Virus record (IMG/VR): IMGVR_UViG_2695420871_000006 | Length of the DNA: 30,728 nucleotides | Reading direction: 5' to 3' (one strand) | Source of the DNA: a virus | Lineage: Duplodnaviria; Heunggongvirae; Uroviricota; Caudoviricetes | Shown here: positions 1 through 29,063 of the stretch, in pieces | Layout of the letters: each line of letters opens with the position of its first letter | Numbering within the stretch: position 1 is the stretch's first letter | Notes under the pieces: generated by a model | Seen by the model: only the letters and a program-made list of their open reading frames with translations | What the model was told of the DNA's origin: nothing | The model's database searches: none | Position numbers and translations under genes: made by a program

Positions 1-195
1 GAGCTGCATGACAAAGTCATCGGGCATTATCTGAACATAAAACACTATCAATAAGTTGGAGTCATTACCGGCTGGCGGAGCCTTCAGTCTATTTTAATGC
101 CGCCAACGGGCCGTGGAGAATTGCTCTGGCCTATTATCAGGAAGGGCCGGTAGATTATAGCGCGGGTAAACGTGGAACGTGTATAGCGCGGCGAT

Positions 196-268
196 TTTTT
201 TGATACCGATTTGCATTTCATTTGATACCGCTGAAAAACGCCGATACGCAACTTATTTGATACTAAAT
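196..268. repeat. Three direct copies of TTTGATAC(C/T) at 199-208, 221-230 and 256-265; candidate transposase end-binding sites of the prophage right end
   Basis: Repeats read directly from the sequence. The first two are 22 bp apart, the spacing typical of MuA-type end sites (inference). Confidence 0.4.
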
Positions 269-309
269 CGGCGCTTTTCTTTTGAGTTTTAGAATGAGTT
301 TTTAAGCGT

Positions 310-1047
310 TCATTCACTCTCTTTCAAACCAGTTTTAACTGTTTGTGGTTTTGGGTAAGGCTGGACTTTGAATAGCTTTGTGTTAAGGCGTTTTCTGGCT
401 CTCTTGTCCAGAAACCGGATGTAACGAAACTGACGGAATTTATGAACACTGGCTCTGTCGATATTAGCCCGCAGATGTTCACCTCGCTGTCCTCCTCGTT
501 TGATTGCATTCTTGCAAATCTCGTGATACCACTCGCCATCAAGTTCATAGAATGTTGTTTCATGACTGCCTACATAATCAAAATTGCTTGCCTGGTACAC
601 GACACCAAGACAGCCACAACGCTCATCTGCAAACGACTGAACCCACTGCACCTGCGGATAAAGTTGTCTGATTAGTTTGAGCGCGTAACTGATTGCCCTT
701 GATTCAGAGTTTCTCGGCATACAGTCATGCAGCCATAACCGGTTAAGCTCCATATATTCGCGGTTCTGCGTGCCAGTTACGACGCGTGCACCATTGTTTG
801 GATTAAGGGCATAACCCCATTGCATTACGCCAACCAGCTCCCGTTCTGAAAATATGCCCAGATGAAGGTAGGAATTATTTACGAAACGATGGCTGTAATG
901 TTTATTGACGACGACCAGCCGGGCCAGCCAGCAACTTATTGTCTCAACCCGTAACTCACGGGAGCCATAACCGACGATATTGTCGTTATAGTGAATAAGT
1001 TCAGGCGTGCTGATGATACGGGATGTAACTTGCTTTCTGTTCCCCAC
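310..1047 (-). CDS. mom: Mom-like DNA (adenine) modification protein, anti-restriction. Start uncertain: GTG at 1045-1047 is proposed, but the frame is open up to 1242.
   Basis: Large ORF overlapping and immediately downstream of com, and the last gene before the phage end as in Mu. The proposed GTG lies in the 3' arm of a hairpin with AAGGAAA in the loop. Confidence 0.7.
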
Positions 1048-1201
1048 GACAGGATTTCCTTGTGTATGTGGGGTGCTCTGTGGCGCTCTGAGATGTGATT
1101 TGATTGAGGGTTTTACAGCGCGGACATTTAACTTCCAGATAACTGAAGCTGGCTCGTGCCAGTAGCTTGTTACAATGTCGGCACCGTATGTTTCGATACA
1201 T
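1001..1201 (-). CDS. com: Com, zinc-finger translational activator of mom (about 66 aa from ATG 1199-1201; the track ORF extends to a TTG at 1246)
   Basis: Protein [34 protein letters not shown]... has a CxxC...CPRC zinc finger resembling Mu Com as recalled from memory. AGGAGG (revcomp of 1212-1217) lies 10 nt upstream of the ATG. Confidence 0.8.
1042..1073 (-). promoter_or_regulatory. mRNA hairpin (CCCCAC, 20-nt loop, GUGGGG) sequestering the putative mom GUG start and SD; candidate Com-responsive translational switch
   Basis: Perfect 6-bp GC stem read from the sequence. Matches the established Com mechanism of unmasking the mom translation initiation region. Confidence 0.5.
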
Positions 1202-1248
1202 GGCCGCATAACCTCCTGCTTTGTTGTTGATATCTTTATCACTCAATC

Positions 1249-1334
1249 GATCGACAAAAACGATCGATTTGATTTATTTAATTGATACAACAAATAACAC
1301 GAAATGTCATTAGCGAAAATTTATGAGTTTGATC
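1249..1334 (-). promoter_or_regulatory. GATC cluster upstream of com (GATC at 1249-1252, 1262-1265, 1331-1334; two CGATCG palindromes 13 bp apart); candidate Dam-methylation/OxyR-type control region of the mom promoter
   Basis: GATC sites read from the sequence. By analogy with Mu Pmom, where upstream GATC sites confer Dam dependence. Confidence 0.4.
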
Positions 1335-1457
1335 ACTAATTTTAAACGGTGCTGTAACGCATAAGTGCTGAATGATTGTACATTTGAATACCGCAAAGCA
1401 AACAAATCAACTAATTTATAGAAGTCAATTGGTTAATTGCCAGCGTAAGAGGCTGCT

Positions 1458-1751
1458 ATGGACAATCATGTAACGACGAGAAATCGAAAAATGATTGAAA
1501 ATGCGGAAATCTATAATGATTATTTTTCCGATTATTCAGATGCCTGCAAATACAGTTCGAGTGCGGGAGAGTTCATATGCTTCAACTTTTTTATTAAATC
1601 TTATGTTTTTCCTCCACAGCAAGAAGATGGAGGTGTGCCACCTCCTGAAATCACTTTGCACCGTATAGCCTCCGTCTCAATGATGGAGCAACAGGCTAAT
1701 GAGCTGTATAGCATTCTGGGAACGATTCTACAAAAGCGTGAATCGGACTAA
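1458..1751 (+). CDS. Hypothetical protein, 97 aa, AT-rich moron-like gene divergent from com-mom
   Basis: ATG with AAGAGG 6 nt upstream. Visibly AT-rich coding sequence in a GC-richer phage. No recognisable motif. Confidence 0.5.
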   Translation: MDNHVTTRNRKMIENAEIYNDYFSDYSDACKYSSSAGEFICFNFFIKSYVFPPQQEDGGVPPPEITLHRIASVSMMEQQANELYSILGTILQKRESD

Positions 1752-1832
1752 TGATACCGGTTCATTTGCCTGCCCGGATGGGGAAGCAGGATTGACTGCT
1801 CCATAAGCAGCTATATTTCTGAATACGAAATA

Positions 1833-1861
1833 CTATCCAGCGATTACATATGGCTGGATAG
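1833..1861. other. Perfect 9-bp inverted repeat CTATCCAGC/GCTGGATAG with 11-nt spacer, between convergent genes
   Basis: Read from the sequence. Could be a terminator for minus-strand transcripts (followed by U-rich UAUUUCGUAUU on the minus strand) or a protein-binding palindrome. Confidence 0.45.
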
Positions 1862-1885
1862 CGGCAAAGATGTTTTCATTAGTGT

Positions 1886-1920
1886 CAAACCGGCAGAGGA
1901 CACCACCGGTTTGTATTGTT
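1886..1920 (+). terminator. Hairpin CAAACCGG (12-nt loop) CCGGTTTG followed by TATTGTT; candidate intrinsic terminator for the plus-strand ORF 1458-1751
   Basis: 8-bp perfect stem plus a U-rich tail on the plus strand. Confidence 0.4.
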
Positions 1921-2173
1921 ACATCATGGTACTGTCAGTTCCGGGCTGAGCCGGGTCTGGTTGCTCTGGCTGCGCGTCGGTTTTCGGCTCATTATCAGCA
2001 TCACTGGCCGCAACTGCTGGCCCAATAAGTTTTGCCAGCACTTCATCAACGTAAGTGTCGATTTGTGCCTCAAAATCCTTGCGGACCTGCGCTTTCAGCA
2101 ACTTATTTACTTCACCGGAATACAGTGCCTGTTTTACCAGGTCTTCAGTGACGGTGCCTTTAATTTCTGGCAT
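1919..2173 (-). CDS. Hypothetical small acidic protein, 84 aa, with Pro/Gln-rich C-terminal tail
   Basis: ATG 2171-2173 with AGGAGG (revcomp of 2180-2185) 6 nt upstream. Estimated net charge about -8. Confidence 0.6.
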   Translation of the reverse strand: MPEIKGTVTEDLVKQALYSGEVNKLLKAQVRKDFEAQIDTYVDEVLAKLIGPAVAASDADNEPKTDAQPEQPDPAQPGTDSTMM

Positions 2174-2208
2174 GTATATCCTCCTTATGCGGGAATAAAG
2201 CCCTGCAA

Positions 2209-2391
2209 TCAGGGCTGGGTCGGGTCTTTTGGGAGCGGAGTTACCTGCGCTGTTTTACTGAGTTTTTCAGCTGCTGCGTCCTCAATTTTGCGGCGAACAT
2301 AATTTCTGATGGCCTTATAACCACCACTCACCAGATATAACGCACATACTGCCGTGCAGAAATACAATAAAATAAGCTGTAAAAATGTCAT
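2209..2391 (-). CDS. Hypothetical small membrane protein, 60 aa from ATG 2389-2391: one N-terminal TM helix followed by a basic segment
   Basis: GGAGGG immediately upstream of the ATG. Hydrophobic FLQLILLYFCTAVCALYLV followed by KAIRNYVRRK (positive-inside). The track TTG start at 2403 is less likely. Confidence 0.6.
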   Translation of the reverse strand: MTFLQLILLYFCTAVCALYLVSGGYKAIRNYVRRKIEDAAAEKLSKTAQVTPLPKDPTQP

Positions 2392-2406
2392 TATCCCTCC
2401 CAATTA

Positions 2407-2433
2407 TTGACATGGTGTTGACACCGGTAATAT
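2407..2433 (+). promoter_or_regulatory. Candidate sigma70-type promoter on the plus strand: TTGACA (2407-2412; second copy 2418-2423), 15-bp spacer, TAATAT (2428-2433)
   Basis: Consensus hexamers read from the sequence. No plus-strand ORF lies downstream before the terminator at 2488-2529. Confidence 0.3.
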
Positions 2434-2487
2434 CTGTTAGGTAAAAAGGTGCACTGCATTTTTTGCTTTGGATATAACGATCTTTTT

Positions 2488-2529
2488 GCCGCCGGTTTCT
2501 TGTTTTCCCTTACCGGCGGCATTTTTTTA
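2488..2529 (+). terminator. Strong rho-independent terminator on the plus strand: GCCGCCGGT (15-nt pyrimidine-rich loop) ACCGGCGGC followed by ATTTTTTTAT
   Basis: 9-bp GC-rich perfect stem followed by a T7 run on the plus strand. On the minus strand it is followed by AAAAAG, so it is not a terminator for the esterase gene. Confidence 0.7.
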
Positions 2530-2535
2530 TCCTGC

Positions 2536-4590
2536 TTACGCGTTATTCACTTCCACCACGATACTGTCAATCAGTACCGGGTAAGTCGCATTTTTAGTGA
2601 TATCGGTCACGCGCAACTTGTCTGCCGTAAACGTGCCGACCGGAGACTGCGACAGCATGAATGGTGTCCCGTCCTTACCATCAATGACCGGCGTCACCTC
2701 AATACTGTTGTTACCGGCAAAACGGAAGCCCAGCGTATGCCATTCGTTATTAAATGCACCGAATGACCCCAGTTTCGTGTTTTGCGCCGTATTGCCCTTG
2801 TGGTACATCACGTTAAGGTCTGTGGCATCGCTCTGTACATAGAATGACGCCAGCAAGTTATGACCTGAATTACCTTCCAGCATGACACCCTGAGGCAGTG
2901 AAGAAACCGGCCAGTATAGCGCCAGTGCATACCGATTAGCCGTAAGCGCACCATCAAGTTTAAAACGACAACTGACAAGACCGCCTTTACCCAGGAGGTC
3001 TGCGCCATTACCAGCATCATGCTCAAGGTACCAGGAGGCTCTTCCTGTTTCCTTGGTCAGTTTCATTGCCTTACCCCCGCTGGCTCCGGCATCATCCACG
3101 ATTTGAGCCTTGCCACCTCCGGCAGCCCAACCCTGTGGTGTCAACCGTCCTTCAGACTCAGATGCCCGGTAAGCAAATAGCGTACTCATCGTCGTGGTGT
3201 CTGCGGGTGGCGTGGACGGTTTTGATGGTGTATCAGGTGACGGCTTCTCATCCGGTGGTGTCACGGTCTGCCCGCGCATCAATTCAGCCGTGCGCCCTGC
3301 ATGGAGCATAATAGCTGAGGCCAGACGGTCTGAAATGACGCCCCTGCGTGCCCATGAGCTGAAATGGCTGTCACGCTGTGTCGAAACAAAACTGCCCTGG
3401 GTTCGGGATGCTGCACCGTAATACCCGACAGCCACAATATCCGGGTCTTCCGCCGGAGCATTCGTTGGCGTGCTCTGTCCATTCTCATCCGTCAGGAACG
3501 GTACAAAGAAAATTTTCTGTGCTTCCTTGCCTTTGTAGCCACCGTATACTGCCTCATATTTATCGGTGCCAGCGTTTTTCCAGTAATACGTGGTATCACC
3601 GCAAATCCACGGCACCGTGGTGGCATTTCCACTCACGCACTGCGCAGCAAGCGGAGCCAGGTCAGTTCTGAACTGCTGAACCATGGCCGTGAATAAACTA
3701 TTATGCTGCTGGCTTCCTGAGGCAAGGTCTGCCTCTCCCTGCATCCAGACCACAGCCAGAAGTTTGTTTTTCGGGTTTTTCGCCAGCGCGACTTTGGTGC
3801 GGCTTACCAGGTCCTGATACAGAGGTTTACCGGCCCCCCAGCGTGAAGAATCAGCGGAAGCACCGCTGGCCTCACTGAATGAGCCGTCGGCTCCAGTGGT
3901 GAATGCTGACCCGCCACGACAACAGGGCACCAGAAGTATCCCCGCATTCTGTGGGATATAGGGAAGCAGTTTTTTGGCAATATGCAACCCCTGACTGACA
4001 GTCCCGTACTGGCCTTTTGCCAGATCAGCTTTCGGGTGGTTTATCCCGCTCATATCCTGAACATCATGCAGGCAGTGGTCTGCCGGAATGATGTCGTTGT
4101 ATGTACACGACGTACCGTTGGGCGTTACCGTACTGCGGCGTGCCAGTTGCTTAATGCGTGGGTCCGGGCGGTCAAACGAATCCGGTAACGGCAGCCCCTC
4201 GCCGTAGGCCATGCCATTTGACTGACCCGCGAGAATGACAACAAAGTAATATTCCGGCTCTGAACTGCTGCCATTCGTGCTACCGGAAGGCCCGGCGTTA
4301 TCCGGTGCATTCCAGTCGGAGGGCGTGAGCGTTCCGGCCACGTCAGATGTGATTGGAATGATGCCAGTCACGCCTGAACTGGTGATTTCTGCACTGGGAT
4401 TACCGGATACCGGCATTACCCATAATGGCTCTTTCGTGCTGAAGCGGATCACGCAGTCTGCGAAGGTGATCCCCCCTTTATTACCCGAAGGGCGGAAAGG
4501 GCTTTCAATAAATGCCACCGTGCCACCGGCAACCTTGACTGAAAACTCTCCGGGCATGGCGGAGAGCATTTTCCACTTGGAGTCTGACAT
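2536..4590 (-). CDS. Prophage cargo carbohydrate O-acetylesterase (SGNH/SASA family, NanS-p-like sialate O-acetylesterase) with N-terminal domain, Pro-rich linker and C-terminal lectin-like domain; 684 aa
   Basis: Motifs LAGQSNGMAYG, CCRGGSAF and VVWMQGEADL match the GQSN / WxQGE(S/A)D signatures of the sialate O-acetylesterase family. Linker PPDEKPSPDTPSKPSTPP. Sits downstream of tail fibre genes as nanS-p genes do in EHEC prophages. Confidence 0.65.
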   Translation of the reverse strand: MSDSKWKMLSAMPGEFSVKVAGGTVAFIESPFRPSGNKGGITFADCVIRFSTKEPLWVMPVSGNPSAEITSSGVTGIIPITSDVAGTLTPSDWNAPDNAGPSGSTNGSSSEPEYYFVVILAGQSNGMAYGEGLPLPDSFDRPDPRIKQLARRSTVTPNGTSCTYNDIIPADHCLHDVQDMSGINHPKADLAKGQYGTVSQGLHIAKKLLPYIPQNAGILLVPCCRGGSAFTTGADGSFSEASGASADSSRWGAGKPLYQDLVSRTKVALAKNPKNKLLAVVWMQGEADLASGSQQHNSLFTAMVQQFRTDLAPLAAQCVSGNATTVPWICGDTTYYWKNAGTDKYEAVYGGYKGKEAQKIFFVPFLTDENGQSTPTNAPAEDPDIVAVGYYGAASRTQGSFVSTQRDSHFSSWARRGVISDRLASAIMLHAGRTAELMRGQTVTPPDEKPSPDTPSKPSTPPADTTTMSTLFAYRASESEGRLTPQGWAAGGGKAQIVDDAGASGGKAMKLTKETGRASWYLEHDAGNGADLLGKGGLVSCRFKLDGALTANRYALALYWPVSSLPQGVMLEGNSGHNLLASFYVQSDATDLNVMYHKGNTAQNTKLGSFGAFNNEWHTLGFRFAGNNSIEVTPVIDGKDGTPFMLSQSPVGTFTADKLRVTDITKNATYPVLIDSIVVEVNNA

Positions 4591-4894
4591 CGTCTTTTCT
4601 GCCTGTTTCTGAATTAAACAGAGTCAGAATAACAACCGCTGATAAATATGTGTTTTGCGGAAATTCAAAAAAAGCATCACGGTACTTTTTGTGACGGAGC
4701 CGGTTAGGCAGGAACATAACGACAAAGGATGGACAGGCCAATACGATAACCGCATATTACCGGCTTATAATTGATTTAACGATTCATGACGCTGCGGTCA
4801 GCATCTGAAAATATGCGTTATTTCAGAAACCCCTTGCCTGTATATGGCGATATTATTATTCCTGTTTTTATCATTGATTTACATGGTGATGTTT

Positions 4895-5416
4895 ATGCAA
4901 CTGATTAATGTTAAACGATATTACCCGGAACAAAAACCCTTTGGTAATGATGTACAGTATTTTCAAAGTGAAGATGGTAAGGATTTCTATGAGTCCCTGC
5001 CATTATTCACCAAAAAATATAAACTTTGCATAACCCCTGACAGCGGTGTTATCTGCTCAATATCACAGGATGCTTCGGCGCTGTATCCTGCGGGTTTTTC
5101 CGTTGTTGAGACAGACGAATTACCTGAAGGTACTGATATTTCAGGTAACTGGAAGTTTGATAATGGTGTCATCTCACAACTCCCGGTTAACTATACCAAA
5201 AAAGCGGAAGCACTGCGCCAGTCATATCTTAATCAGGCATATGAAAAGATTAATGACTGGAGAACTGAGTTACAGCTGGGCACGATTAGTGATGAAAACA
5301 GAGCTGCGCTTACACGATGGATGAAATACATCAGTCAGGTGAAAAAAATGGAACTACCAGCGATTAAAAACAAAGCTGAATTTGACGCCATTAAATGGCC
5401 GGAGAAGCCTGAATAA
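4895..5416 (+). CDS. Tail fibre assembly chaperone (Tfa/U-like), opposite strand to the fibre gene; start at ATG 4895 proposed (track ORF starts at 4844)
   Basis: C-terminus ...TRWMKYISQVKKMELPAIKNKAEFDAIKWPEKPE is typical of Tfa proteins. The gene is AT-rich by eye. Confidence 0.75.
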   Translation: MQLINVKRYYPEQKPFGNDVQYFQSEDGKDFYESLPLFTKKYKLCITPDSGVICSISQDASALYPAGFSVVETDELPEGTDISGNWKFDNGVISQLPVNYTKKAEALRQSYLNQAYEKINDWRTELQLGTISDENRAALTRWMKYISQVKKMELPAIKNKAEFDAIKWPEKPE

Positions 5417-17688: not shown

Positions 17689-18636
17689 TTACAGATAATC
17701 CGCGACAACCAGCTCCAGCTTGCCCTTCATCTCGTTAGAGACGGTGGTGTTACCGTCCGCGAACAGCTCGCGCTCCAGCAGCTGCACCGCCTGTTTTTCC
17801 AGCGAGGTGGGGACAACAATATGGGTGGGTTTGATGCCGAGTTTGCGGCCACCGTCAGCCTTAAAGTCACGCATGGCTGACCAGCCGTGCCACAGCGCAT
17901 CCAGCGTCAGCGGTGACTGCATCATGTAGGCCATCTGCCAGAAGCCGTAGCCCACATTGCGACGGGCGGAAGCACCGAACACAAACTCGTTATCAGTAAA
18001 CGCACGGCCTTCATCGACTTTTGTCTGGGCAACCAGTTCGGCCTTGCGGCGATCCTGATAAATCAGCGGTTTTACCGCGCGGGAGCAGTCAAGCAGATAC
18101 CAGGCCGGGCCGCTGTAATCCGCCTGTGCACCGACAGAGCCGGTTTTTGCCACAAACATATTGCTGACCATCTGTGCATCACCGGAGCCATCCACTTTGG
18201 GGTAAACAGGGTGTTCGGTATCAAAGAAGTTCTGGCCGTCATAGCAGGCCGCATTCAGACCATCACGCAGTGCAGCAAAGACCAGTTCATCCGGTTGTGC
18301 CGCCGCAGCGCGCCCCATCTCCTGGAACAACGGGGAGTAGATGCCAAGATTGTCGTCTTCAAAGTCATCGCGGCTAATAGCAACGGTGCCTTCAAAGGTT
18401 TTGTTCACGATGGCGTAGCCATAGGCTTTCATCTTCTCGATGACGCGGGAGCCGATCCACTCACGGAACTGCGGGAACTGCCCCAGCCAGCCGTAGGTGT
18501 TGGATTTCGACGTGGACGGTACGGTCATCGCAATTTTCTGGTACTGAGACGGAGCCATGGACATCCCGGCCTGAAAATCAGAACGGTAGCCCGTCATCAG
18601 GGCGGTGATCATCGCCGGTGTAATCGGGGTAGGCAT
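17689..18636 (-). CDS. Major capsid protein (Mu T-like)
   Basis: 315 aa immediately after the protease/scaffold gene; a GC hairpin (17663-17681) follows its stop. Confidence 0.85.
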   Translation of the reverse strand: MPTPITPAMITALMTGYRSDFQAGMSMAPSQYQKIAMTVPSTSKSNTYGWLGQFPQFREWIGSRVIEKMKAYGYAIVNKTFEGTVAISRDDFEDDNLGIYSPLFQEMGRAAAAQPDELVFAALRDGLNAACYDGQNFFDTEHPVYPKVDGSGDAQMVSNMFVAKTGSVGAQADYSGPAWYLLDCSRAVKPLIYQDRRKAELVAQTKVDEGRAFTDNEFVFGASARRNVGYGFWQMAYMMQSPLTLDALWHGWSAMRDFKADGGRKLGIKPTHIVVPTSLEKQAVQLLERELFADGNTTVSNEMKGKLELVVADYL

Positions 18637-19760
18637 TATTGCATTTCCTCTTTCATTTTCAGGAACTCGGCTTCGGTTTTACCCAGCAGATGGGCGGCGG
18701 CGATATCTTCAGCCGACAGCGCAGCGGTGGCGGTCTTTTTATCCGGCACGGTTACGGTGTCGGTCTGAAGAGTGGTCAGAGCCGCAACCGGCTGGCGGGC
18801 GTCAAGCTGTGCAGAAAGTGCCGCAACACCAATCTGTTGTCCGAGTCCTTCCATGTATCCGCGTTCGCTTTTGAAAATGCGTCCTTCGGACTCGGCCTTA
18901 TCCAGCAACTGCTCCAGCGTGGTGCTGCCGTGTTGTGCCGACAACGCGACATATTCGGTACGCAGGGCGTTATACGTCTCAACGGGCACGTATTTCGTCA
19001 GATCAATAGTGCCGCCAGTTGGTGTGCCTTTTGCGGTTTCCAGCTCTGCCGACAGGCTGGCAACCTGCGTTTTCAGGGTGTCGTGCGCATCCGCACGGGT
19101 TTTGATCCCGGTAAGGGCAGACAGCGCCGCCGTGCCCAGTTCCGGTGTAAATTCGTCACCGTCGGCCACGGTCAGACCGAGCGCCGTCAGCAACTGGCGT
19201 AATTGCTCATTCATGGAGGTGTCCTTTAAAGGAGGGTTTAAGGCGTTATAAAGGTCATCCGCCGACAGTGCGGCGACAGGATTCATGCCAGTCAGACCGG
19301 GGTCACCGGTAATAGCCAGCATCCGAAGCTCAACAGGTTCACCGGTGATTTCGTCATAACCAATCACCGGGGAAAACCAGGGAAATTCGTTATTGCGCAG
19401 GTGTTCAATGGCCGGAGGGTTCCAGTCCGGACGCACTTCAAAACCCCGCTCTTCACTGAAGCGGAAGTTTTCCGGTGAGGCCATGACAAAGCCGGCAGCC
19501 GGTGCCGGATGCCCCTTAATCAGGGTCTGGTGGTTGTAGTCAATTTTTACCGGCTGATTGAGCGCCACAACCCGGGATACCATGCGCTCAACGGCCGCAT
19601 GGTTAATCAGCCAGCCTTCCGCCGGTTTTTCCGGGCGACCGTCACGGGCCTTTACCCGACCGGCTGGCATGATCTGACACCAGTCACCGTCCCCGTCTGC
19701 GGACAGGCTGATGGCATTCAGAATGGCATAAGCAAGTTTGGGCGTGTTTTTCGTCTTCAT
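18636..19760 (-). CDS. Head maturation protease / scaffold (Mu I-like, with nested scaffold C-terminal part)
   Basis: 374 aa; Ala/Leu-rich helical C-terminal half; synteny. Confidence 0.8.
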   Translation of the reverse strand: MKTKNTPKLAYAILNAISLSADGDGDWCQIMPAGRVKARDGRPEKPAEGWLINHAAVERMVSRVVALNQPVKIDYNHQTLIKGHPAPAAGFVMASPENFRFSEERGFEVRPDWNPPAIEHLRNNEFPWFSPVIGYDEITGEPVELRMLAITGDPGLTGMNPVAALSADDLYNALNPPLKDTSMNEQLRQLLTALGLTVADGDEFTPELGTAALSALTGIKTRADAHDTLKTQVASLSAELETAKGTPTGGTIDLTKYVPVETYNALRTEYVALSAQHGSTTLEQLLDKAESEGRIFKSERGYMEGLGQQIGVAALSAQLDARQPVAALTTLQTDTVTVPDKKTATAALSAEDIAAAHLLGKTEAEFLKMKEEMQ

Positions 19761-19937
19761 TCCGGCAGCATAAGCCGGTGTTTTTCGGGGCCGGTTTTGC
19801 GGGACTTCAGAAAGTGCTGACAGGGGAAAAATGAGAAAGGCGCTTCACGCAGATTTTAAAGCCCGTTAAATACAGGTTAGAAAATCACGACACGCGCCTG
19901 AAGAGGGTAAGGCAATGCGTTTGTATACCTTAAACCA
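19761..19937 (-). promoter_or_regulatory. 177-bp non-coding gap upstream of gene I; candidate activator-dependent late promoter (PI equivalent)
   Basis: The only sizeable gap in the head operon and no ORF in any minus frame. Mu has a late promoter upstream of I. Confidence 0.3.
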
Positions 19938-20411
19938 TTACGGCGTTTCTGTGGCCTTTTTAAAGCGTTTTCTGATTTCGTCCATGATCTCCTGTTCTGC
20001 CACCTGATCAAAGCCCATATACGGACGTGCGCCAATGGCCGCCGGTCCCGGTGGCATACCAGGCAGGCCACCCCACTGATGAATGGCCGCATAAGGTTCA
20101 TTTGATCCAATCAGCGCCCAGGTATCGCCATAATCCGTGGTCAGGCGGCGGGCCAGATCGCCGTTCAGTGTCAGGATTTTGCCGGGCGTGTATCCCTTAC
20201 GGGTACGCCACTTGCGGTAAGGATCTGACCAGTCATGCCAGCGTTCGCCGTCCGGCTCTTTTTCCTGTTCAAACGCCATTTCTGACGATGACAGAAGACT
20301 CTCCGCCACACTGCGGGCCAGGTCTTTTCCGCCGCCCACAAACTGAAGCCGGGCAAACACCCGCTGGAGACGCGTAACGTCAACAACGACAGCGGCATCA
20401 ATGGATGACAT
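19938..20411 (-). CDS. Virion morphogenesis protein (Mu G-like)
   Basis: 157 aa; GGAGG upstream of ATG; synteny. Confidence 0.8.
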   Translation of the reverse strand: MSSIDAAVVVDVTRLQRVFARLQFVGGGKDLARSVAESLLSSSEMAFEQEKEPDGERWHDWSDPYRKWRTRKGYTPGKILTLNGDLARRLTTDYGDTWALIGSNEPYAAIHQWGGLPGMPPGPAAIGARPYMGFDQVAEQEIMDEIRKRFKKATETP

Positions 20412-20532
20412 ATTGCCTCCGCATAAAGGATGAATATAAAATAAACAGGCGGTCAGTGTACGCTTAACTGGTAAAGTCGGTGCCTGCCTCCGGGTGGATC
20501 ATGTATGCGGGTTCGACCCCCGCCACTGACCG

Positions 20533-21864
20533 TTAATCAATTTGTCCTTCCAGCACCTCAAGCATTCCGCCCCGGATATCCGATTTCAGCTTATCCATAT
20601 TGATAACCCGGTAAGCATTCACAATCACATCCAGTTTGTCGGGCTGACGTTTCAGACTGTACGGTGCATTAACGGCAATCTGCACACTGCCATCCTTATT
20701 TTCCACGATATACATCAGATTTTTGTGCCGTTTGTCCCACAGCACCGCTTTTGGCTTTGCCAGCATTGCCGGTAAGCGCCCGAAGTCCTCTGGCATCAGG
20801 GCGATGCCGTCATTCTGATGTTTCACACTGTCTGCATGGAGCACATTTTTACCGCTCATCGCCAGCAGGCGGGCCGGTGGCGTTCCCGTCCGGCTTTCCA
20901 CTGCCTGCGCAATGCTTTCAGTCATAAAGCCCAGCGTGCGGATATCGTTACCACCTCGCCGGGTCTGCATGATGTTTTTTGCCCAGATGCGGAACGCCAG
21001 CTGCCGCTCCGGGCTGTTGTTCATCTCCTGAACCACCATTTCCCGTAACGCCGGGCTTTTCACCTCGATCAGTTTGCGGATCAGCGCCTGGTCTGTGCCG
21101 AACGCTGCCGAGCCGGGGTTATATGACCAGCCCACATCCGGTGTCATGGTTCTGGTGCCATCTGAATATGTGGTCACCGGCATTTCTCTGACTTCTCCGG
21201 TCTGTTTATCCACGCCAGCCTCAACATTGCGGGTGGAGAGATGATCCTCACCGGATGAAACGGATAACCCCATTGCATCCAGACGAGCCTGAGACAATGG
21301 CCGCACACGGCAGCGGCAGTTCCAGCCATTAGGTGGGTAGTGTGTTTTCCAGAACGGATCGTCATAGCGGAATACCAGACCGTTAAGGGCGGAATGCGAC
21401 GGGCGGGTACGGCTGTCCATGACCGCCACATACTGCCAGAACGGATGCGTGTCCGTGTTGTTCATCATCTGCGTGTAACGCCCGGCATTGTAAGCCACCC
21501 GGGTGTTCACGTTGTAAATCAGCGCCAGACGACGGGGACTGCCCAGTTGCACTTCTTCCGCGTTACCGTCGCTGTCCACCACAATCTGCTTTCCCCACCA
21601 TCCCAGCTTTTGCAGGCGTGGCGTCAGCGTGCGGATAAATGCTTTCTGTGAAATTCCCTCATCAATGGCCCGCTGCACTTCGGCCTGTAACGTGGTCACT
21701 ACATCCAGGCGTGCCGCTTTTGCTGCCGTGAATGAGCGGGCATGAACATCCGCGGCTGTTTCGAACCAGTTCCAGCTGATATGCGCCCCTTTGGCGCGGA
21801 AGTATGCCACCGTCTCTTTTGAGGGAAGCGTGGCGGCATAACCTAAATCAATCTCCTGAGCCAT
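20533..21864 (-). CDS. Head morphogenesis protein (Mu F-like)
   Basis: 443 aa downstream of the portal. Confidence 0.8.
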   Translation of the reverse strand: MAQEIDLGYAATLPSKETVAYFRAKGAHISWNWFETAADVHARSFTAAKAARLDVVTTLQAEVQRAIDEGISQKAFIRTLTPRLQKLGWWGKQIVVDSDGNAEEVQLGSPRRLALIYNVNTRVAYNAGRYTQMMNNTDTHPFWQYVAVMDSRTRPSHSALNGLVFRYDDPFWKTHYPPNGWNCRCRVRPLSQARLDAMGLSVSSGEDHLSTRNVEAGVDKQTGEVREMPVTTYSDGTRTMTPDVGWSYNPGSAAFGTDQALIRKLIEVKSPALREMVVQEMNNSPERQLAFRIWAKNIMQTRRGGNDIRTLGFMTESIAQAVESRTGTPPARLLAMSGKNVLHADSVKHQNDGIALMPEDFGRLPAMLAKPKAVLWDKRHKNLMYIVENKDGSVQIAVNAPYSLKRQPDKLDVIVNAYRVINMDKLKSDIRGGMLEVLEGQID

Positions 21865-23437
21865 CCAGCATCCCCTTCATTTCCGCAGCAAACATGGCAT
21901 CACTGAGCAGCGTCATCAGGCGGGAATCATCCATTTCACGATAAAGGGCAGGCAGGTCTGCCAGCGCATCCGCCAGCCCCCGCGTTCTGATGGCATCAAT
22001 GACCGGCTCCAGTACCGGGTCGATGGCCTCCTGTAAGCGGCGGGCAGGCACCGCGTCCCCCATATCATCCAGTTCATCACGCGGCGTGCTTTTCGCTTCC
22101 GGCAGTCTGGCTGACAGCGCCGTCTGCTCTGTTTTTTCCTGTTTTTCCGGTGGTGTTTCCCTGTCGGTCTGAGCCGGTTCATTGCCACTCTGACGGACAC
22201 GGAATATGGCTTCACCGGGCGTGGGCTGCGGAATACCGGTCTGCTCACGTATCCAGGGATCAGAAATATCCATCCCCGTACTGAGCTGCATCACCGCACT
22301 GGTGATTTTGGTGATATCACCTGGTTCTTTTGTCTGGAAGCAGATACGTGGCAGACGGCGGATATCAATAGTGTGCGTGGTGTTCAGGGCGTACAGCGGA
22401 TACACCAGATCGCGGTTCAGGGTTGCAGCCAGCTGTCGTAAATCAGAATCCCTGATTTCCCGGCGCACCTCGTTATGTACCTCACCCAGTGAGCGCGCGC
22501 CTTTGTCTCCGGCTTCCGTGGTCAGCGTGCCGCCGAGTATTGCTTTGGAGATGGAACGCTCCCCCCACGAAATCATGGTTTCAAACGGATCGGCCTGACC
22601 GTTCGCTGCCGCCTGAAACTCCAGCGACATCCCGGCCGGGATGATCCCGCCTGTACGTCGCCCGATATCCATCACCGCCCGCATCAGGGCACTTTTCTGC
22701 TCCGGTGTTGCCCCGGACGGGTATTTCCCGACCTTCATCGGCAGGCCGTACACCTCCAGAAATTCCGCCAGATCGCGCACGGAATAGTTTTTGAAAATGA
22801 ACGGCCAGATAAGCGTCCGGACAAGCCCGGTTGCACCACCGTAACCGGTGCGTGAACGCGACTGATGCACTATCCAGCCAAAGGGCTGAAACGCCACCCC
22901 GGAATGGCTGCCGTCACGCAGCCGCAGTTCGCTCAAATCATCCGGGTTAAGGCAGAAATGCCCGCTGTCACGCCAGCGGATGGCGCGGATGATGTGCATT
23001 TTACCGAGCATCCCGTGCTCAATTTCCATGCAGGAATAGCCCTTCAGGATGGCATCCGTGGCGTCAAACAGCATGGCATCAAACCAGTCTGCGGAATGCA
23101 GATATTCGTCGAGCATTTCCGCGTCCTTTTTCTCATTCGCGCTGGCGTTCGGTGGCGGCTCAATACTCCATGGCACCCCCTGAATGGCAAGACGTCGCTT
23201 GCCCAGCTCCGCAAAAAGGTGGGTGTCCTTTTCTTCAATATCAGCGGCCAGATCGGACTGGGCAATCAGATCGCCACGTTCAGCCCCGCGAAGGCACTGC
23301 GCCGCCCGGTTCGGGGTGATACCCGAAGCCGGATGTTCAATATAACGGCTGGCAATCTGCGGAATATCCAGCGCGGCACTCTGCATCTCCGGGTCAAAGG
23401 AGAAAGGTTTTCCGTCAGTATCAATGATGCGTCCCAC
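21848..23437 (-). CDS. Portal protein (Mu gp29/H-like)
   Basis: 529 aa immediately downstream of the large terminase. Confidence 0.8.
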   Translation of the reverse strand: MGRIIDTDGKPFSFDPEMQSAALDIPQIASRYIEHPASGITPNRAAQCLRGAERGDLIAQSDLAADIEEKDTHLFAELGKRRLAIQGVPWSIEPPPNASANEKKDAEMLDEYLHSADWFDAMLFDATDAILKGYSCMEIEHGMLGKMHIIRAIRWRDSGHFCLNPDDLSELRLRDGSHSGVAFQPFGWIVHQSRSRTGYGGATGLVRTLIWPFIFKNYSVRDLAEFLEVYGLPMKVGKYPSGATPEQKSALMRAVMDIGRRTGGIIPAGMSLEFQAAANGQADPFETMISWGERSISKAILGGTLTTEAGDKGARSLGEVHNEVRREIRDSDLRQLAATLNRDLVYPLYALNTTHTIDIRRLPRICFQTKEPGDITKITSAVMQLSTGMDISDPWIREQTGIPQPTPGEAIFRVRQSGNEPAQTDRETPPEKQEKTEQTALSARLPEAKSTPRDELDDMGDAVPARRLQEAIDPVLEPVIDAIRTRGLADALADLPALYREMDDSRLMTLLSDAMFAAEMKGMLDGSGD

Positions 23438-25101
23438 TACCAGCCCCCCCGATCAAATTCATGATATGCCTCATCGTCATCACGATAACCGCCCTCCATT
23501 GCCCGCGACCGCTCCGGTAGCGCCTGACAGGCTGATTCATCCAGGATGAAGCCCTCCATGTATGACGCCCGGTTTGCCATACAGAGCGCCACGGCAAAAT
23601 CACCATGGCGGCGGGCGTTCGCAGCCGTTGCGTTCTGGTCCTTCGTGCGCCCCTTGTCGATTTGCGGGATACCATTCACTACCTTCACATGGCGCAAATC
23701 ATCAAGCGTGGTCTGATGGCGGGCGACGAGGATATTCTGATCTTCAAACTCGGCTTTCAGTTTTGGCATCCACTCGCCGTACCACTTCGGCGACAACATC
23801 ACGCAGTCGATGATGTCCGGGCCAAAGGCCAGCAGTGCGGCCTCTGCCAGATAGCCGCCGTTACCGGTGGCGTCGAACGCCGCACCGACCAGCGCCGGAA
23901 CGCGGGTCAGGATGTACATCATCACCTGTTCCTGCTGGGCATACGGCAGGTTGCGCAGCTCCACGCGAAACACCTCGCGCTTTGCCAGGGATTCGGTGAT
24001 TTCCAGCAGCACAAAGCAGGACAGGTCACCGGTGCGGGCAAAGTCTTCCCCGAAGCTGAAGCGGGAACGGGGATTTAATTTCTCTAAAAGCGGTTTTAAA
24101 TGTTCTTCACACCAGGTTAAAACTTCCGATTCACGCAGCCATGCGGCACGGCTGATGAAGTTGTCCGGGGCTTCAAACGTCAGAATCGGGATGTCGCGGA
24201 TCATCGCCATTTCAATAAGCGCGTGGGGGATATAGGCACCGCCGGATTTTTTCGGGATACAGCCGTATTCCTCGTCGGCATCCTCACGGGTCGGGGCGTT
24301 TTTGTAGAGATCATCACGCCATTTCTGCTCGCTTTCCGGTGACCATTCCTGATCGGTGACGTAACAGATACGACGGTACAGCCCGTCCGCAATGGCATCA
24401 TCCAGGGTTATGCGGTGGACGCTGTAATCCTTGCGCCCCTCGCGGGCTTCCTGAATGTACTGATTAAACAGATTATCGACGCCGTTATGCGTGGAGATAA
24501 TACGCACGCGCGCGCCCCACATAGTGAGCGCCATTGCCGCCTTGAGAAGTTCATCCAGCGACTCGTGGAACGCGGCTTCATCAATCACCACATCCCCCTG
24601 AAGGCCGCGCAGGTTTGACGGACGGGAAGACAATGCCTGAATTTTGAATCCACTGTTCGGAAAGCGGATCATGTAGGTCAAAATTTCTTCTTTTTTATCC
24701 CGATCCCAGAATGTCTGCTCATACACATCAGCATCTGCCAGCTGGTTAAAGGCACGGGAGAACAGCGCGCAGGCAGAAATATATTCCAGCGCCATCTCCT
24801 GTTTTGACCCCACATAAAACACATTGCGGCCACCACGCCGCTTCGGTTTTGCAGCGGTAATGACGTTACGCCCGGCTTCCGCCCAGGTAAGCCCGGTGCG
24901 GCGGGATTTTTCCGCGATGCAGACCTGACTTTCATCCGCAAACCAGCGGGCCTGATAATCCAGAAACACCGGCATATCACCGGGCAAATCAAGGCTGTCC
25001 GGCACATCCACGCCCAGCAGGGCTTTTTCACCGGACAGATCAATTTTGCGGGGAGGCGTCATTTGTATCAGTGAAGGAGACTTTTCTTTGGCTTTGTTCA
25101 T
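23437..25101 (-). CDS. Terminase large subunit (Mu gp28-like)
   Basis: 554 aa; synteny; ATGA overlap with the upstream small gene. Confidence 0.85.
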   Translation of the reverse strand: MNKAKEKSPSLIQMTPPRKIDLSGEKALLGVDVPDSLDLPGDMPVFLDYQARWFADESQVCIAEKSRRTGLTWAEAGRNVITAAKPKRRGGRNVFYVGSKQEMALEYISACALFSRAFNQLADADVYEQTFWDRDKKEEILTYMIRFPNSGFKIQALSSRPSNLRGLQGDVVIDEAAFHESLDELLKAAMALTMWGARVRIISTHNGVDNLFNQYIQEAREGRKDYSVHRITLDDAIADGLYRRICYVTDQEWSPESEQKWRDDLYKNAPTREDADEEYGCIPKKSGGAYIPHALIEMAMIRDIPILTFEAPDNFISRAAWLRESEVLTWCEEHLKPLLEKLNPRSRFSFGEDFARTGDLSCFVLLEITESLAKREVFRVELRNLPYAQQEQVMMYILTRVPALVGAAFDATGNGGYLAEAALLAFGPDIIDCVMLSPKWYGEWMPKLKAEFEDQNILVARHQTTLDDLRHVKVVNGIPQIDKGRTKDQNATAANARRHGDFAVALCMANRASYMEGFILDESACQALPERSRAMEGGYRDDDEAYHEFDRGGW

Positions 25102-25349
25102 CAGGCTTTACCTGTCAGAATGCTTTTGATTCGGGACTCAAGCTCTTCAGTCATCACGTCCACGCCGCTCAACTCATCAGTGGCAGCCTCTGCCAGCAGC
25201 GAATGCAGTTGTTCCAGGGATATTTCCCCGGCAATGCTGAGTTCAGTCAACTCACGACACGCTTTTATGGTTTCAGGAGGTAACTGTGTTGCAAGACTGA
25301 ATGCCTTCAGATGAGCACTACTCATCAGTGAGCGGTTATCTGTTGCCAT
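25101..25349 (-). CDS. Small protein (82 aa) whose C-terminus is paralogous to the C-terminus of the preceding gp27-like protein
   Basis: AAGAGGTGA SD plus ATG. C-terminus ...TDELSGVDVMTEELESRIKSILTGKA versus gp27-like ...TDELRGVDGMSEQIEFRIRQMLLGKA. Confidence 0.6.
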   Translation of the reverse strand: MATDNRSLMSSAHLKAFSLATQLPPETIKACRELTELSIAGEISLEQLHSLLAEAATDELSGVDVMTEELESRIKSILTGKA

Positions 25350-25359
25350 GATTCACCTC

Positions 25360-25941
25360 TTATGCCTTACCCAGCAGCATCTGCCTGATACGGAATTCGA
25401 TCTGCTCGCTCATGCCATCCACGCCGCGTAACTCGTCGGTGACCGCGTTCGCCATCTCTTCAGCAAATGCGGCCCGGATTTCTTTTTCACGCTTAATACT
25501 GCGCTCGGCGGCACTTTCTGCACGCTGTGCCGACAGGAGGATGTCCTTGATGAGGCGCATATCCACATCGCTGTCGCTGTTCAGGGATTCGGTGGCGGCA
25601 CGCAGACGGCGGTACATCAGGGCACGGGACATCTCCAGAATCAGTGCCGTGGTTTCACCGGTCGGCTTATCCCCCAGTTCGGCCATCATGGCTTTTGTCT
25701 GCTCGCGTAAATCACGCAGATTACGGGCAATCAGCTCATTACGGGAGGCTTCCCGGCTGATGGCCGCCGGTGAAAGCTGCTGCTCTTCCGGCAGGCCTGC
25801 CTCACGGATCAGACGGTTGATTTCCTCGCGGATCTGGACCTGCGTCAGGCGTTTTTCACGCAGCATTTCCAGCAGCGGCTTACGGATGCTGTCGGGGAGC
25901 AAATCCACCTTGCGTACACGGCCACGCGTCGGCTTATCCAT
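25360..25941 (-). CDS. Mu gp27-like DNA-binding protein (putative small terminase subunit)
   Basis: 193 aa upstream of the large terminase; basic N-terminus. Confidence 0.7.
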   Translation of the reverse strand: MDKPTRGRVRKVDLLPDSIRKPLLEMLREKRLTQVQIREEINRLIREAGLPEEQQLSPAAISREASRNELIARNLRDLREQTKAMMAELGDKPTGETTALILEMSRALMYRRLRAATESLNSDSDVDMRLIKDILLSAQRAESAAERSIKREKEIRAAFAEEMANAVTDELRGVDGMSEQIEFRIRQMLLGKA

Positions 25942-25943
25942 CG

Positions 25944-26234
25944 TTACCCCCTTGCGCGTGGTTTCTTCACACCCGGAACAGTGGCACGACCTTCCGCCAC
26001 ATCCTGACCCCGGCCGGTCAGTTCAGCGATGAAATAACCGTTAACAAGCGTGCGCTTACGCACCAGTCCCTGCTCAGCAAGCCAGGCAATGTGGGTGTGA
26101 ACGGTGTCGCGGGACACGCGGTGGCCGTAATCATCCAGGCAGTCCTGAAGCACGGATTCGCCCAGTTCGCCGTTGTAATCCGCCAGCGACCGCAGAATGA
26201 CAAGACGCTGATCTTCAGTAATGAAATCACTCAT
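25944..26234 (-). CDS. Mu gp26-like small protein (putative winged-helix)
   Basis: 96 aa; AAGGAAAAAA SD; synteny. Confidence 0.55.
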   Translation of the reverse strand: MSDFITEDQRLVILRSLADYNGELGESVLQDCLDDYGHRVSRDTVHTHIAWLAEQGLVRKRTLVNGYFIAELTGRGQDVAEGRATVPGVKKPRARG

Positions 26235-26538
26235 TGTGTTTTTTCCTTACAGCCTGCTCCAGCAGCAGTTCGTTCTGGTGGGAGACGGATTTCAGGGTGG
26301 CATTGGTGGCCTTAAGCTCACCGCGCAGGGTGGTGATTTCGATATTGAGTCTGTTCACCTCCTGCTGCGTGGGCAGGCCGGAAATCCGGCTCTCCACCCG
26401 CTCAACCCGGTCGGAGAGTTTTTCAAAGGCCTCGCGGGGGACAAAGGTTTTGCGCATCAGCGCCATAAAGATCCCCCCGGCCGTGGCTGTTGCCGACAGG
26501 ATCGGCACGACATAATCTTTAACGATGCTGACCCACAT
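26227..26538 (-). CDS. Mu gp25-like membrane protein (N-terminal TM helix plus coiled coil); possible lysis regulator
   Basis: TM segment VVPILSATATAGGIFMALM; position in the lysis/packaging junction. Confidence 0.6.
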   Translation of the reverse strand: MWVSIVKDYVVPILSATATAGGIFMALMRKTFVPREAFEKLSDRVERVESRISGLPTQQEVNRLNIEITTLRGELKATNATLKSVSHQNELLLEQAVRKKHNE

Positions 26539-26746
26539 GACCGGCCTCCATGATGCTCTGGCAGTTCACACAACGGATGGCATCCGGCACGGCAACCAGA
26601 CGGGCGGCCGGAATGTCACCCCCGCAGTCTGCGCATACACGCCTGCCCGGAGTCTCCTCCACCCGGCACTTACGTGTCAGCCGGTCACAAAGGGCGCGTT
26701 CTGTTGCCCGCTCCACGACTGCCTGAGCACAATCTGAATCATCCAT
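26519..26746 (-). CDS. TraR/DksA-family C4 zinc-finger protein (75 aa from ATG 26744-26746)
   Basis: CADC-x17-CVNC spacing is typical of the DksA/TraR zinc finger. AAGGAAAAAGG SD before the internal ATG. Confidence 0.7.
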   Translation of the reverse strand: MDDSDCAQAVVERATERALCDRLTRKCRVEETPGRRVCADCGGDIPAARLVAVPDAIRCVNCQSIMEAGHVGQHR

Positions 26747-26756
26747 ACCTTTTTCC

Positions 26757-27128
26757 TTACTTCGTCTTTCCTGCCGGAACAGCAGTCGTTCCGGCCATAT
26801 CAGTAAATTCATGCTGTCGCTGTGCCTCCAGACGGCGGATGCTGGCCTTGTCCACGTTGCAGTTCTTAATCACCGCCAGCAGTTGCAGGTTGTAAGTGAC
26901 CGATGCGCCAAACGTGAACGGCTGCGGCACAGGAGGAACCAGACAGTCAGCCAGCCATTCAGCGGGGATCGGCACCGGCTTCACCGGCACGTATTTCACA
27001 GACGGCCCGCCGCACCCGGTCAGCCACATCATCAGGCACAGGAACAGAGGCCGCAGGCACCGTTGCCAGCGACCGGCGGACAATGCTCTGCTGTTCCTCG
27101 CTGTGCTGCATGTTCTGCTGTTTTTCAT
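26757..27128 (-). CDS. o-spanin (Rz1-like outer-membrane lipoprotein), overlapping the i-spanin gene
   Basis: Lipobox LTGC followed by the Pro-rich mature region GGPSVKYVPVKPVPIPAEW. Start assigned to ATG 27126-27128. Confidence 0.6.
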   Translation of the reverse strand: MKNSRTCSTARNSRALSAGRWQRCLRPLFLCLMMWLTGCGGPSVKYVPVKPVPIPAEWLADCLVPPVPQPFTFGASVTYNLQLLAVIKNCNVDKASIRRLEAQRQHEFTDMAGTTAVPAGKTK

Positions 27129-27357
27129 TCGTGGCCGCCTTACTGATTTGTGAAATGAGTTGCAGGGTACGTTGCTGGTTTGCCAGCACCAGACGGGCTT
27201 CGTCCCGTTCACGCACAAGCACATGATTATTGTCTTCAAGACGCTGTGTCTTCTGGTGCATTCCCCATACCACGGCAGCCAGCACGCTCATCACCCCCAG
27301 CGCCGCCATACACCCTCCGGCAATCAGGGCCGGTAAGGGATTATTCACCGCAGCCAC
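26959..27357 (-). CDS. i-spanin (Rz-like); start uncertain (GTG near 27355 or ATG 27309; ORF open to 27480)
   Basis: N-terminal TM segment LPALIAGGCMAALGVMSVLAAVVW followed by a charged coiled-coil-like region. Confidence 0.6.
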   Translation of the reverse strand: MAAVNNPLPALIAGGCMAALGVMSVLAAVVWGMHQKTQRLEDNNHVLVRERDEARLVLANQQRTLQLISQISKAATNEKQQNMQHSEEQQSIVRRSLATVPAASVPVPDDVADRVRRAVCEIRAGEAGADPR

Positions 27358-27421
27358 AGCACACCCCGGAGCACCACAACGACACACAACAGCGCAATCA
27401 TGAGTGGTCGCCAGAAGCGGT

Positions 27422-27922
27422 TCAGACTTTCGGCAAATCGTAGCGACACAACCATTCATCCGCCGAACGGCGGGCCTCAAGACCGGGGAGTTTTACCCCC
27501 TTTGAATAAATCCAGCGGATATACTGCTTACAGGACCCGGGCATCTGCCCGGCATTGATAAGGCGCAGGAGCGTGGAGTTGCGAAAGTTCGTTTCACCGG
27601 CCCAGAAAATCCAGGAGGCCAGCGCCACCGTCTGACCACGGGTAAGCGGCACCTGAACATGACGATCGATAGCCGCAAAGGCCCATTTCATGTCCTTTTC
27701 CAGCAGCTCCAGACATTCTTCATCAGTTTTTGTCATCCCCGGTTTCACATCCGGGCCGGTATGGCCGTAACAGATGGTGGGGGTGCCGGTGGGATCAATG
27801 TACGTGGTGTTTTCTTTCCCTTCCCAGTAGCCGGTGTAGTGCGTGGCAATGGTGAACGTCCCGGCTCCGGCCAGAACAAGGGCAATCAGCTTTTTACGCA
27901 GGGGTGCGGGGAGTTTTGGCAT
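27422..27922 (-). CDS. lys: SAR endolysin (T4-lysozyme-like, GH24)
   Basis: N-terminal Gly/Ala-rich signal-anchor LIALVLAGAGTFTIA. Catalytic E-x8-D-x5-T in YWEGKENTTYIDPTGTPT. Confidence 0.85.
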   Translation of the reverse strand: MPKLPAPLRKKLIALVLAGAGTFTIATHYTGYWEGKENTTYIDPTGTPTICYGHTGPDVKPGMTKTDEECLELLEKDMKWAFAAIDRHVQVPLTRGQTVALASWIFWAGETNFRNSTLLRLINAGQMPGSCKQYIRWIYSKGVKLPGLEARRSADEWLCRYDLPKV

Positions 27923-27993
27923 TGTTACGCTGTCTCATGGTGTTCTCTGAGTCAGCGTAACCGTGGGAAAAAGTGGGCAGGATTTGCGGAATA
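27923..27993 (-). promoter_or_regulatory. Intergenic region upstream of lys; candidate late promoter (Plys equivalent)
   Basis: Position only, by analogy with Mu. Confidence 0.25.
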
Positions 27994-28416
27994 TCAGAAA
28001 AGCCGTGGCTGCGTGCGTTCCTGATGCAGGCGACGCTGGTTGCGGATAACGGAGTAAATCTGCGTCTCTGACATCTGGTAGTGGCGGCGCAGGGTTTCAA
28101 TTTTTTCGCCCTGGCTCCAGCGGGAAAAAATTTCATTATTGCGCAGTTCGGTGAAAAGGGATTCACCGACCGGGAGATAATAACCACGCCCGCCCATGTA
28201 CCCGGCCTGTGCGGCTGCAACCTTACGGGCAAGCATTCCCGCCTGAGCAGGTTCAATCCCCTGACGGTGCAGTTCAGCACTGATCACATCAACCAGGTCC
28301 CGCAGCGTGCCGGGCCAGTTCTTTTTCAGCTCATCATCAGGAATATCATCCAGACGGTCAATCAGCGCGTGCAGCTGTTCGCTGTCACCAAACATGCTCA
28401 TCTGTGTTTCAGCCAT
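27994..28416 (-). CDS. Mor/C-family transcriptional activator of middle/late genes (140 aa)
   Basis: C-terminal ...GGRGYYLPVGESLFTELRNNEIFSRW...ETQIYSVIR is typical of the Mor/C family. GGAGG SD. Located between gemA and lys. Confidence 0.8.
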   Translation of the reverse strand: MAETQMSMFGDSEQLHALIDRLDDIPDDELKKNWPGTLRDLVDVISAELHRQGIEPAQAGMLARKVAAAQAGYMGGRGYYLPVGESLFTELRNNEIFSRWSQGEKIETLRRHYQMSETQIYSVIRNQRRLHQERTQPRLF

Positions 28417-28450
28417 ACCCGCCTCCGGTCATCATTACACAGGGCAAGTT

Positions 28451-28480
28451 TAAAATAAAAATCCCGCGCTGTGGCGGGAT
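28451..28480 (-). terminator. Intrinsic terminator 7 bp downstream of gemA: ATCCCGC (6-nt loop) GCGGGAT followed by UUUUAUUUUA on the minus strand
   Basis: 7-bp perfect stem with a U-run read on the minus strand. Confidence 0.65.
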
Positions 28481-28486
28481 TTGGGG

Positions 28487-28999: not shown

Positions 29000-29063
29000 T
29001 ATCGTGTCTCCGTAACAACAGGCGGCATGGCAACGCCGCCCGGATAAAACTAAAGGTATCGAT

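Follow-up and report, generated by a model that had tools for sequence, protein, structure and literature searches.

Transposable phages typically have TG-CA ends and generate target-site duplications of 5 or 6 bp (PMC8705779), and in Mu the terminal CA is conserved, the stagger is 5 bp, and MuA sites L1–L3 and R1–R3 are found at the phage ends (PMC3562280). TA-TA ends were first noted in prophages of Leptospira, where transposable elements of the WETA1 type carry them and were judged active since copies occur at different sites; their occurrence elsewhere was left open in 2021 (PMC8705779). Sp18 of E. coli O157:H7 Sakai has been described as a Mu-like phage that is intact and packaged (PMC2669165), with relatives whose insertion sites are strain-specific (PMC7430833).

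The DNA analysed here, hereafter the window, is the 30,728-nt IMG/VR record IMGVR_UViG_2695420871_000006. We posit, with a probability of roughly 90%, that positions 182 to about 266 of the window are the right attachment end (attR) of an Sp18-family prophage, Mu-like and transposable, that lies inside ompG. A preliminary description of the window had proposed the right end of a Mu-like prophage at this place, and this core reading is right: the finding is real, mom adjoins the end, and putative transposase sites recur a short way in from it. Several particulars of that description had to be revised, leaving it confirmed in part.

The prophage occupies positions 182–30638 on the minus strand, from its right end to a point inside an early SANT/Myb-like gene, and includes Mu-type head and tail genes, the late genes being on the minus strand. 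It is collinear, at 98.4–98.9% identity, with a prophage in relative L004 over window positions 179 to 30638. The same sequence, from about position 180 inward, is present in more than 220 complete E. coli genomes at many different loci, and the prophage family occurs in about 4% of complete E. coli genomes. Sp18 and its relatives, such as Phi804-3, share identity and collinearity with this copy at both ends, including a right end that is 95% identical over 1.1 kb, the TATAGCG terminus, the three repeats and the left-end architecture. The window copy nevertheless belongs to another sublineage, being 76–95% identical to Sp18 but 98–99% identical over 30 kb to AF39/HH35-type copies, and it differs from Sp18, which lies in sorM, by its insertion in ompG, its interruption by IS1 and the lack of an invertase gene.

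Outside the prophage, the plus strand begins with the right end of an IS1 element (positions 1–69), comprising the 3′ end of insB with its stop codon at 52–54 and the terminal inverted repeat. Many records annotated as insB or IS1, including the copies in P1 and SfIV, match these 69 nt at 100% identity, and the frame 1 translation ends in ELHDKVIGHYLNIKHYQ at the stop codon, which is the C-terminus of InsB (...HYLNIKHYQ). Between IS1 and the prophage, positions 70–181 (plus strand) are an internal fragment of ompG (gene nt 146–257), found at 100% identity in the ompG of thousands of E. coli genomes and mapped on the uninterrupted locus L002. The proposal that positions 1–179 are host DNA thus stands from position 70 onwards, where the sequence is ompG, but not for positions 1–69, which are the IS1 right end. 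Likewise, the frame that is open to the TAA at 52–54 had been taken for the possible 3′ end of a host gene and is instead the C-terminus of InsB, the ompG piece being internal to its gene.

Exact protein matches led to the source lineage, including the sister contig L036 and the 4.89-Mb chromosome CP179997.1 (L025). An identical IS1–ompG–right-end junction is found in this chromosome, in which the IS1 seen at window positions 1–69 is complete. On the far side of this ompG-side IS1 (L025:14537–16022), left of where the window starts, the chromosome picks up within ycjV, and approximately 552 bp are missing, consisting of the 3′ part of ycjV and ompG nt 1–145, which indicates an IS1-associated deletion. 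The ompG gene has been damaged in three ways, by IS1, by the 552-bp deletion and by the prophage. The ompG/phage junction had no match in GTDB species representatives, JGI metagenomes or IMG/VR, and the right-end core had none in GTDB representatives.

The prophage right terminus, 5′-TATA, lies at positions 182–185 on the plus strand. The conserved sequence starting at 182, 5′-TATAGCGCGGCG, is invariant across at least 21 independent right-end junctions, taken from IMG/VR contigs as well as complete genomes and draft assemblies, whereas the flanking bases differ. Where copies of this prophage sit at other places in the chromosome, of which there are many, their homology to the window ends at positions 176–182, so that the phage/host boundary is sharp and the flanks differ between copies (at least 21 different flanks). 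Continued phage homology upstream of position 180, which would have spoken against a prophage end, was not seen; the homology ends at the boundary. The transferred (minus) strand ends in ...CGCTATA-3′, making the right end 5′-TA.

This terminus departs from the end at position 180 proposed in the preliminary description, which was read as a canonical Mu terminus of the 5′-TG...CA-3′ type accompanied by a 5-bp target duplication. A TG does precede TATAGCG in the window and, by chance, in L003 and L014, and most left ends in the Sp18 family begin with TG (12/16). However, uninterrupted ompG reads ...GGAACGTGGTTTG, with the same TG, and because of this identity the bases at 180–181 are assigned to host ompG. 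The two bases before TATAGCG also differ in most of the at least 21 junctions (TG, TC, TA, CG, GT, AC, AT, TT, CT, CA, AA and AG), and the boundary at 182 gives an end of ...CGCTATA-3′ rather than ...TACA-3′. The apparent 5′-TG...CA-3′ terminus arises by chance from the ompG flank. Annotations of this lineage should place the prophage boundary at the T of TATAGCG, window position 182. The RefSeq feature ‘prophage Sp18’ of Sakai (L012, NC_002695.2, 672..39430) begins 1 nt too far in on the left, where the true terminus is 671, and ends 5 nt past the true right terminus (39425), thereby including the flanking TAAAG.

Target-site duplications bear on the same question. The right-hand copy of a 4-bp duplication, CGTG, occupies positions 178–181 on the plus strand and includes the TG of the earlier reading. 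Empty ompG reads ...GGAACGTGGTTTGAT and the window junction reads GGAACGTG followed by TATAGCG. Sister contig L036, read on the same strand, gives TGGTTACA followed directly by CGTGGTTTGAT, its left end TGTAACCAGG... abutting the ompG sequence CGTGGTTTGATCGCCC. Taken together, the window, L036 and the empty ompG site (L002) establish the 4-bp duplication CGTG. Duplications of 4 bp were also found in all seven other clean independent insertions for which both ends are present, namely CATG, TGTA, CGTA, CCCG, CAGT, ATAC and TAAA (TTTA on the opposite strand), the last being that of Sakai Sp18 in sorM. Two empty sites rebuilt with a single 4-bp copy each matched more than 5,000 genomes over 156/156 nt. 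The expectation of a duplication and a matching empty site was therefore borne out, though the duplication is of 4 bp rather than the 5 bp foreseen. Across the eight clean insertions the flanks repeat 4 bp in every case and never 5 bp, which, together with the exact match of the rebuilt empty sites, leaves an end at 180 with a 5-bp duplication next to no chance of being correct. Shifting either end by one base to obtain a 5-bp or 6-bp duplication was likewise rejected: no offset fits all insertions, and the empty sites fix the length at 4 bp.

The search for a left end, recommended in the preliminary description, gave none within the 30.7-kb window but located one in ompG in the sister assembly L036. 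Across 16 independent junctions, extended with genomes matched through a 109-aa protein, the left terminus is TG (TGTAACC) in 12 and TA (TATAACC) in 4. Its second base is thus polymorphic, with L003, L005, L028 and L035 differing from the others. Since prophages with two TA termini are found at different loci, they have moved. One of the TA-bearing copies, L035 (GCA_040813255.1), is heavily rearranged: part of its interior is deleted, and an IS1 lies upstream of com. It was set aside in the analysis of duplications, as its two ends lack a matching 4-bp repeat; it shares its right flank with L009 and L016, and its ends probably derive from different insertion events.

Three direct repeats just inside the end, as originally described, are present at 199–207 and 221–229 (TTTGATACC) and at 256–264 (TTTGATACT). 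The 22-bp spacing ascribed to them applies to the first pair but not to the third repeat, which lies 35 bp further on. The 9-mer TTTGATACY occurs four times in the 30.7-kb window against 0.43 expected, a count reached in 0 of 100 shuffles, and a repeat finder returned 16-nt units (family D1) at 191–206, 213–228 and 248–263. We define three putative sites on the plus strand: R1 (186–209, core at 199–207), R2 (210–231, core at 221–229), 22 bp from R1, and R3 (248–266, core at 256–264), 35 bp from R2 and in direct orientation. In R1, GATAC starts at nt 21 from the terminus, the same register as in the left-end L1 site and comparable to CGAAA at nt 22 in L1 and R1 of Mu, and the left-end L3 site (GCAACTCATTTGATACT) is closely similar to R3. 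Complete 39-kb prophages carry the motif three times in the last 85 bp at the right end and, in inverted orientation, three times in the 175 bp next to the left terminus, with one or two occurrences elsewhere per copy in the three copies checked. Putative sites are hence repeated near both termini and inverted between the ends, the GATAC cores lying 21, 43 and 78 nt from the right terminus and 21, 116 and 168 nt from the left, and conservation of the left-end sites persists where their surroundings have diverged.

We interpret the TTTGATACY repeats as putative transposase-binding sites on the grounds of position, symmetry and analogy with Mu, because their layout is that of the MuA L1–L3 and R1–R3 architecture (PMC3562280). 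In such a scheme a DDE transposase, distantly related to MuA, would bind R1, R2 and R3; the protein bound there and at the three inverted left-end sites would pair the two ends, nick after the terminal ...TATA-3′ and join the 3′-OH ends to target DNA with a 4-bp stagger.

The neighbourhood of mom offers a different explanation for the repeats. The mom gene (DNA modification; positions 310–1047, minus strand, 245 aa) is the last gene of the prophage, matches Pfam Mom with E = 7.8e-78 and is annotated as Mom in relatives. It is preceded by com (1001–1201, minus strand), the translational activator of mom, which is assigned to the Com family in collinear relatives and to Zn_ribbon_Com in L025; com and mom are accordingly the last genes before the right end. 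Downstream of mom, on the minus strand, is a terminator-like hairpin (233–279) with 13-nt arms at 233–245 and 267–279 (inverted repeat I1) followed by a U run. Its minus-strand RNA fold has a predicted energy of -23.4 kcal/mol (z = -4.3), and none of 200 shuffles was as stable; a simple terminator scan had missed this hairpin, the loop of which exceeds 8 nt, and it was RNA folding that found it. R3 sits in the hairpin loop and, together with a degenerate copy of the motif (CCGATACG, 241–248), falls within this stable structure, so that the repeats might instead serve the mom operon as regulatory or terminator elements, or be bound by another protein of phage or host, such as the repressor. This we regard as very improbable: R1 and R2 lie outside the hairpin, three inverted copies, in the same register from the terminus, are also present at the left end, at a great distance from mom, and the motif is absent from the repressor–ner operator region of the relatives checked. 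Even with the repeats read as putative transposase sites, the conservation of R3 could in part serve mom expression.

Two further sequence elements were observed in this context. Just upstream of com, at 1245–1269, is a palindrome, AATCGATCGACAAAAACGATCGATT, with two GATC sites, which is reminiscent of the Dam/OxyR-controlled mom promoter region of Mu. An extra copy of TTTGATACC lies on the minus strand at 18217–18225, inside the major head gene near the genome midpoint, and is conserved in L004, L005 and Sp18. Given about 0.4 chance matches expected per window and a position within coding sequence, this copy is probably coincidental.

Compared with the right end of Mu, the locus has the same overall architecture. 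In both cases the element ends at a phage–host junction with com and mom last, and the statement that mom stops about 130 bp from the end, as in Mu, proved accurate, the distance being 128 bp here and 115 bp in Mu. A G+C-rich GCGGCG block near the tip is also shared, in agreement with the preliminary description, according to which the Mu right end has a CGCCGC-containing terminus; Mu does carry GCGGCG/CGCCGC at this place. The first core begins at nt 21–22 and the second follows 22 bp on in both (R1–R2 of Mu are also 22 bp apart), and there are three sites per end, with L1 separated by a gap from L2–L3 at the left end. For reference, the CGAAA cores of Mu lie at 22 and 44, plus an inverted R3, on the right and at 22, 127 and 167 on the left.

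The likeness to Mu therefore holds for architecture but not for sequence. When the window was aligned to the Mu right end, as had been advised, only the first approximately 11 nt were comparable and nothing could be aligned beyond them, and positions 1–3000 had no Mu, D108 or SfMu match in a phage collection searched in ‘near’ mode. The site core is TTTGATACY here but (A/G)CGAAA(A) in Mu, R3 is direct and offset by 35 bp here but inverted in Mu, and a TA-3′ terminus with a 4-bp duplication takes the place of CA-3′ with 5 bp. The locus consequently lacks the TG...CA termini, the 5-bp duplication, and the CGAAA sites and attR homology of Muvirus (Mu, D108, SfMu).

The window, cut off by IS1 ahead of the early region, contains neither the transposase gene nor the B gene. 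In intact relatives, a gene near the left end encodes a 696-aa transposase that has Mu-transpos_C and HTH_Tnp_Mu_1 domains, and it is followed by a gene for a MuB-like AAA ATPase (Phage-MuB_C); sister contig L036 also has both the transposase and the MuB-like genes. The transposase of intact relatives is 22% identical to MuA, and the MuA end-binding I-gamma domain (HTH_Tnp_Mu_2) was not detected by Pfam in the 696-aa protein. In tblastn comparisons the closest phage transposases were those of Yersinia vB_YpM_5 (79%), Klebsiella Kp4866-3 (57%), SuMu (44%) and D3112-like phages (about 30%), with Mannheimia 3927AP2 also ranking among the closest alongside SuMu, vB_YpM_5 and the D3112-like phages. 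A transposase this distant is compatible with a site sequence unlike that of Mu, an R3 in direct orientation, a TA terminus and a stagger of 4 bp.

A parallel for the termini is provided by the Leptospira elements, which likewise have TA ends instead of canonical TG-CA. They differ in having a B3/Tn552-family transposase and 6-bp duplications, whereas the Sp18 family has a Mu-transpos_C transposase related to those of SuMu and D3112, 4-bp duplications and a left end that is mostly TG (12/16). We tentatively suggest, with the balance tipped slightly against, that Sp18-like phages constitute a natural Mu-like system with a TA-3′ right end, in some copies with TA at both ends, and a stagger of 4 bp rather than 5 or 6. 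The sequence facts behind the TA-3′ and 4-bp reading are solid, and the uncertain part is prior documentation. No report of 4-bp duplications or TA termini for Sp18-type phages was found in the searchable literature, the coverage of which is incomplete. No statement on 4-bp duplications was found in literature on Sp18, SuMu, KS10 and the Pseudomonas saltoviruses, the SuMu paper giving no end or duplication data.

The element is an ordinary member of a known, widespread family, the chemistry of its ends is a variation on the Mu paradigm, and the interest of the finding is modest. A prophage common in E. coli apparently transposes with TA-3′ as its right terminus and a stagger of 4 bp, and so departs from the CA termini and the 5- or 6-bp duplications that reviews treat as hallmarks (PMC3562280, PMC8705779). 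The Sp18 family would offer an experimentally tractable E. coli case of a TA-ended transposable prophage outside Leptospira, and prophage finders that seek TG...CA ends with 5-bp repeats would misplace Sp18-type ends.

At its far side the window also terminates in IS1. Positions 30639–30728 (plus strand) belong to another IS1, oriented like the first, and comprise its left end, starting with the IS1 left repeat GGTGATGCTGCCAACTTACTG. This second IS1 lies within the early SANT/Myb-like gene, at a point about 7.8 kb before the place where collinear relatives have their left end. Hence the window begins and ends in same-orientation IS1 copies, with 69 and 90 nt of repeat edge, respectively. Dozens of draft assemblies contain 20–50-kb contigs with the same proteins, and the window probably represents an entire short-read contig whose ends are breaks at IS1 repeats. 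The phage/IS1 junction had no match in IMG/VR.

The bracketing of the segment by same-orientation IS1 copies raises the question of whether this copy is a fossil, that is, an IS1-bounded, truncated remnant that has lost its early region and left end and whose right end is non-functional. The ompG-side IS1 is associated with the 552-bp deletion, the invertase gene is deleted, and the left end was not found in the window, all of which would fit such a remnant. Yet the window resembles a short-read contig merely broken at IS1 repeats, and L036, a 47-kb contig without the IS1 that is 100% identical to window positions 18487–30638 (12 kb), runs on to the left end, retaining the full early region and a left end in ompG. 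In addition, a prophage copy with an IS1 at the same position of the SANT-like gene has its right end at another host site in a different genome (L026/L040), which hints at mobility after the IS1 was gained. We thus consider decay to a fossil possible but not the expected state of this copy. L026/L040 (GCA_900487965.1, UEAP01000047.1) is 100% identical to window positions 18487–30728, and its right end abuts different host sequence, with an MFS-transporter gene and a nitrate-reductase-like ORF; either an IS1-bearing phage transposed or prophage copies recombined.

Two smaller differences concern the interior of the prophage. RefSeq records of relatives annotate a ‘tRNA-OTHER’ between the G-like and F-like head genes (L004:21417–21496), corresponding to window positions of approximately 20453–20532, while ARAGORN and Rfam searches of the window returned no match, including at this position. 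The Gin-like invertase gene of the tail-fibre inversion module, present in relatives (L004:4818–5390), is missing at window positions 4744–4941, where approximately 1,043 bp of the relatives are replaced by 198 bp. The invertase gene is also lacking in L025–L027, and tail-fibre switching is probably frozen in this lineage.
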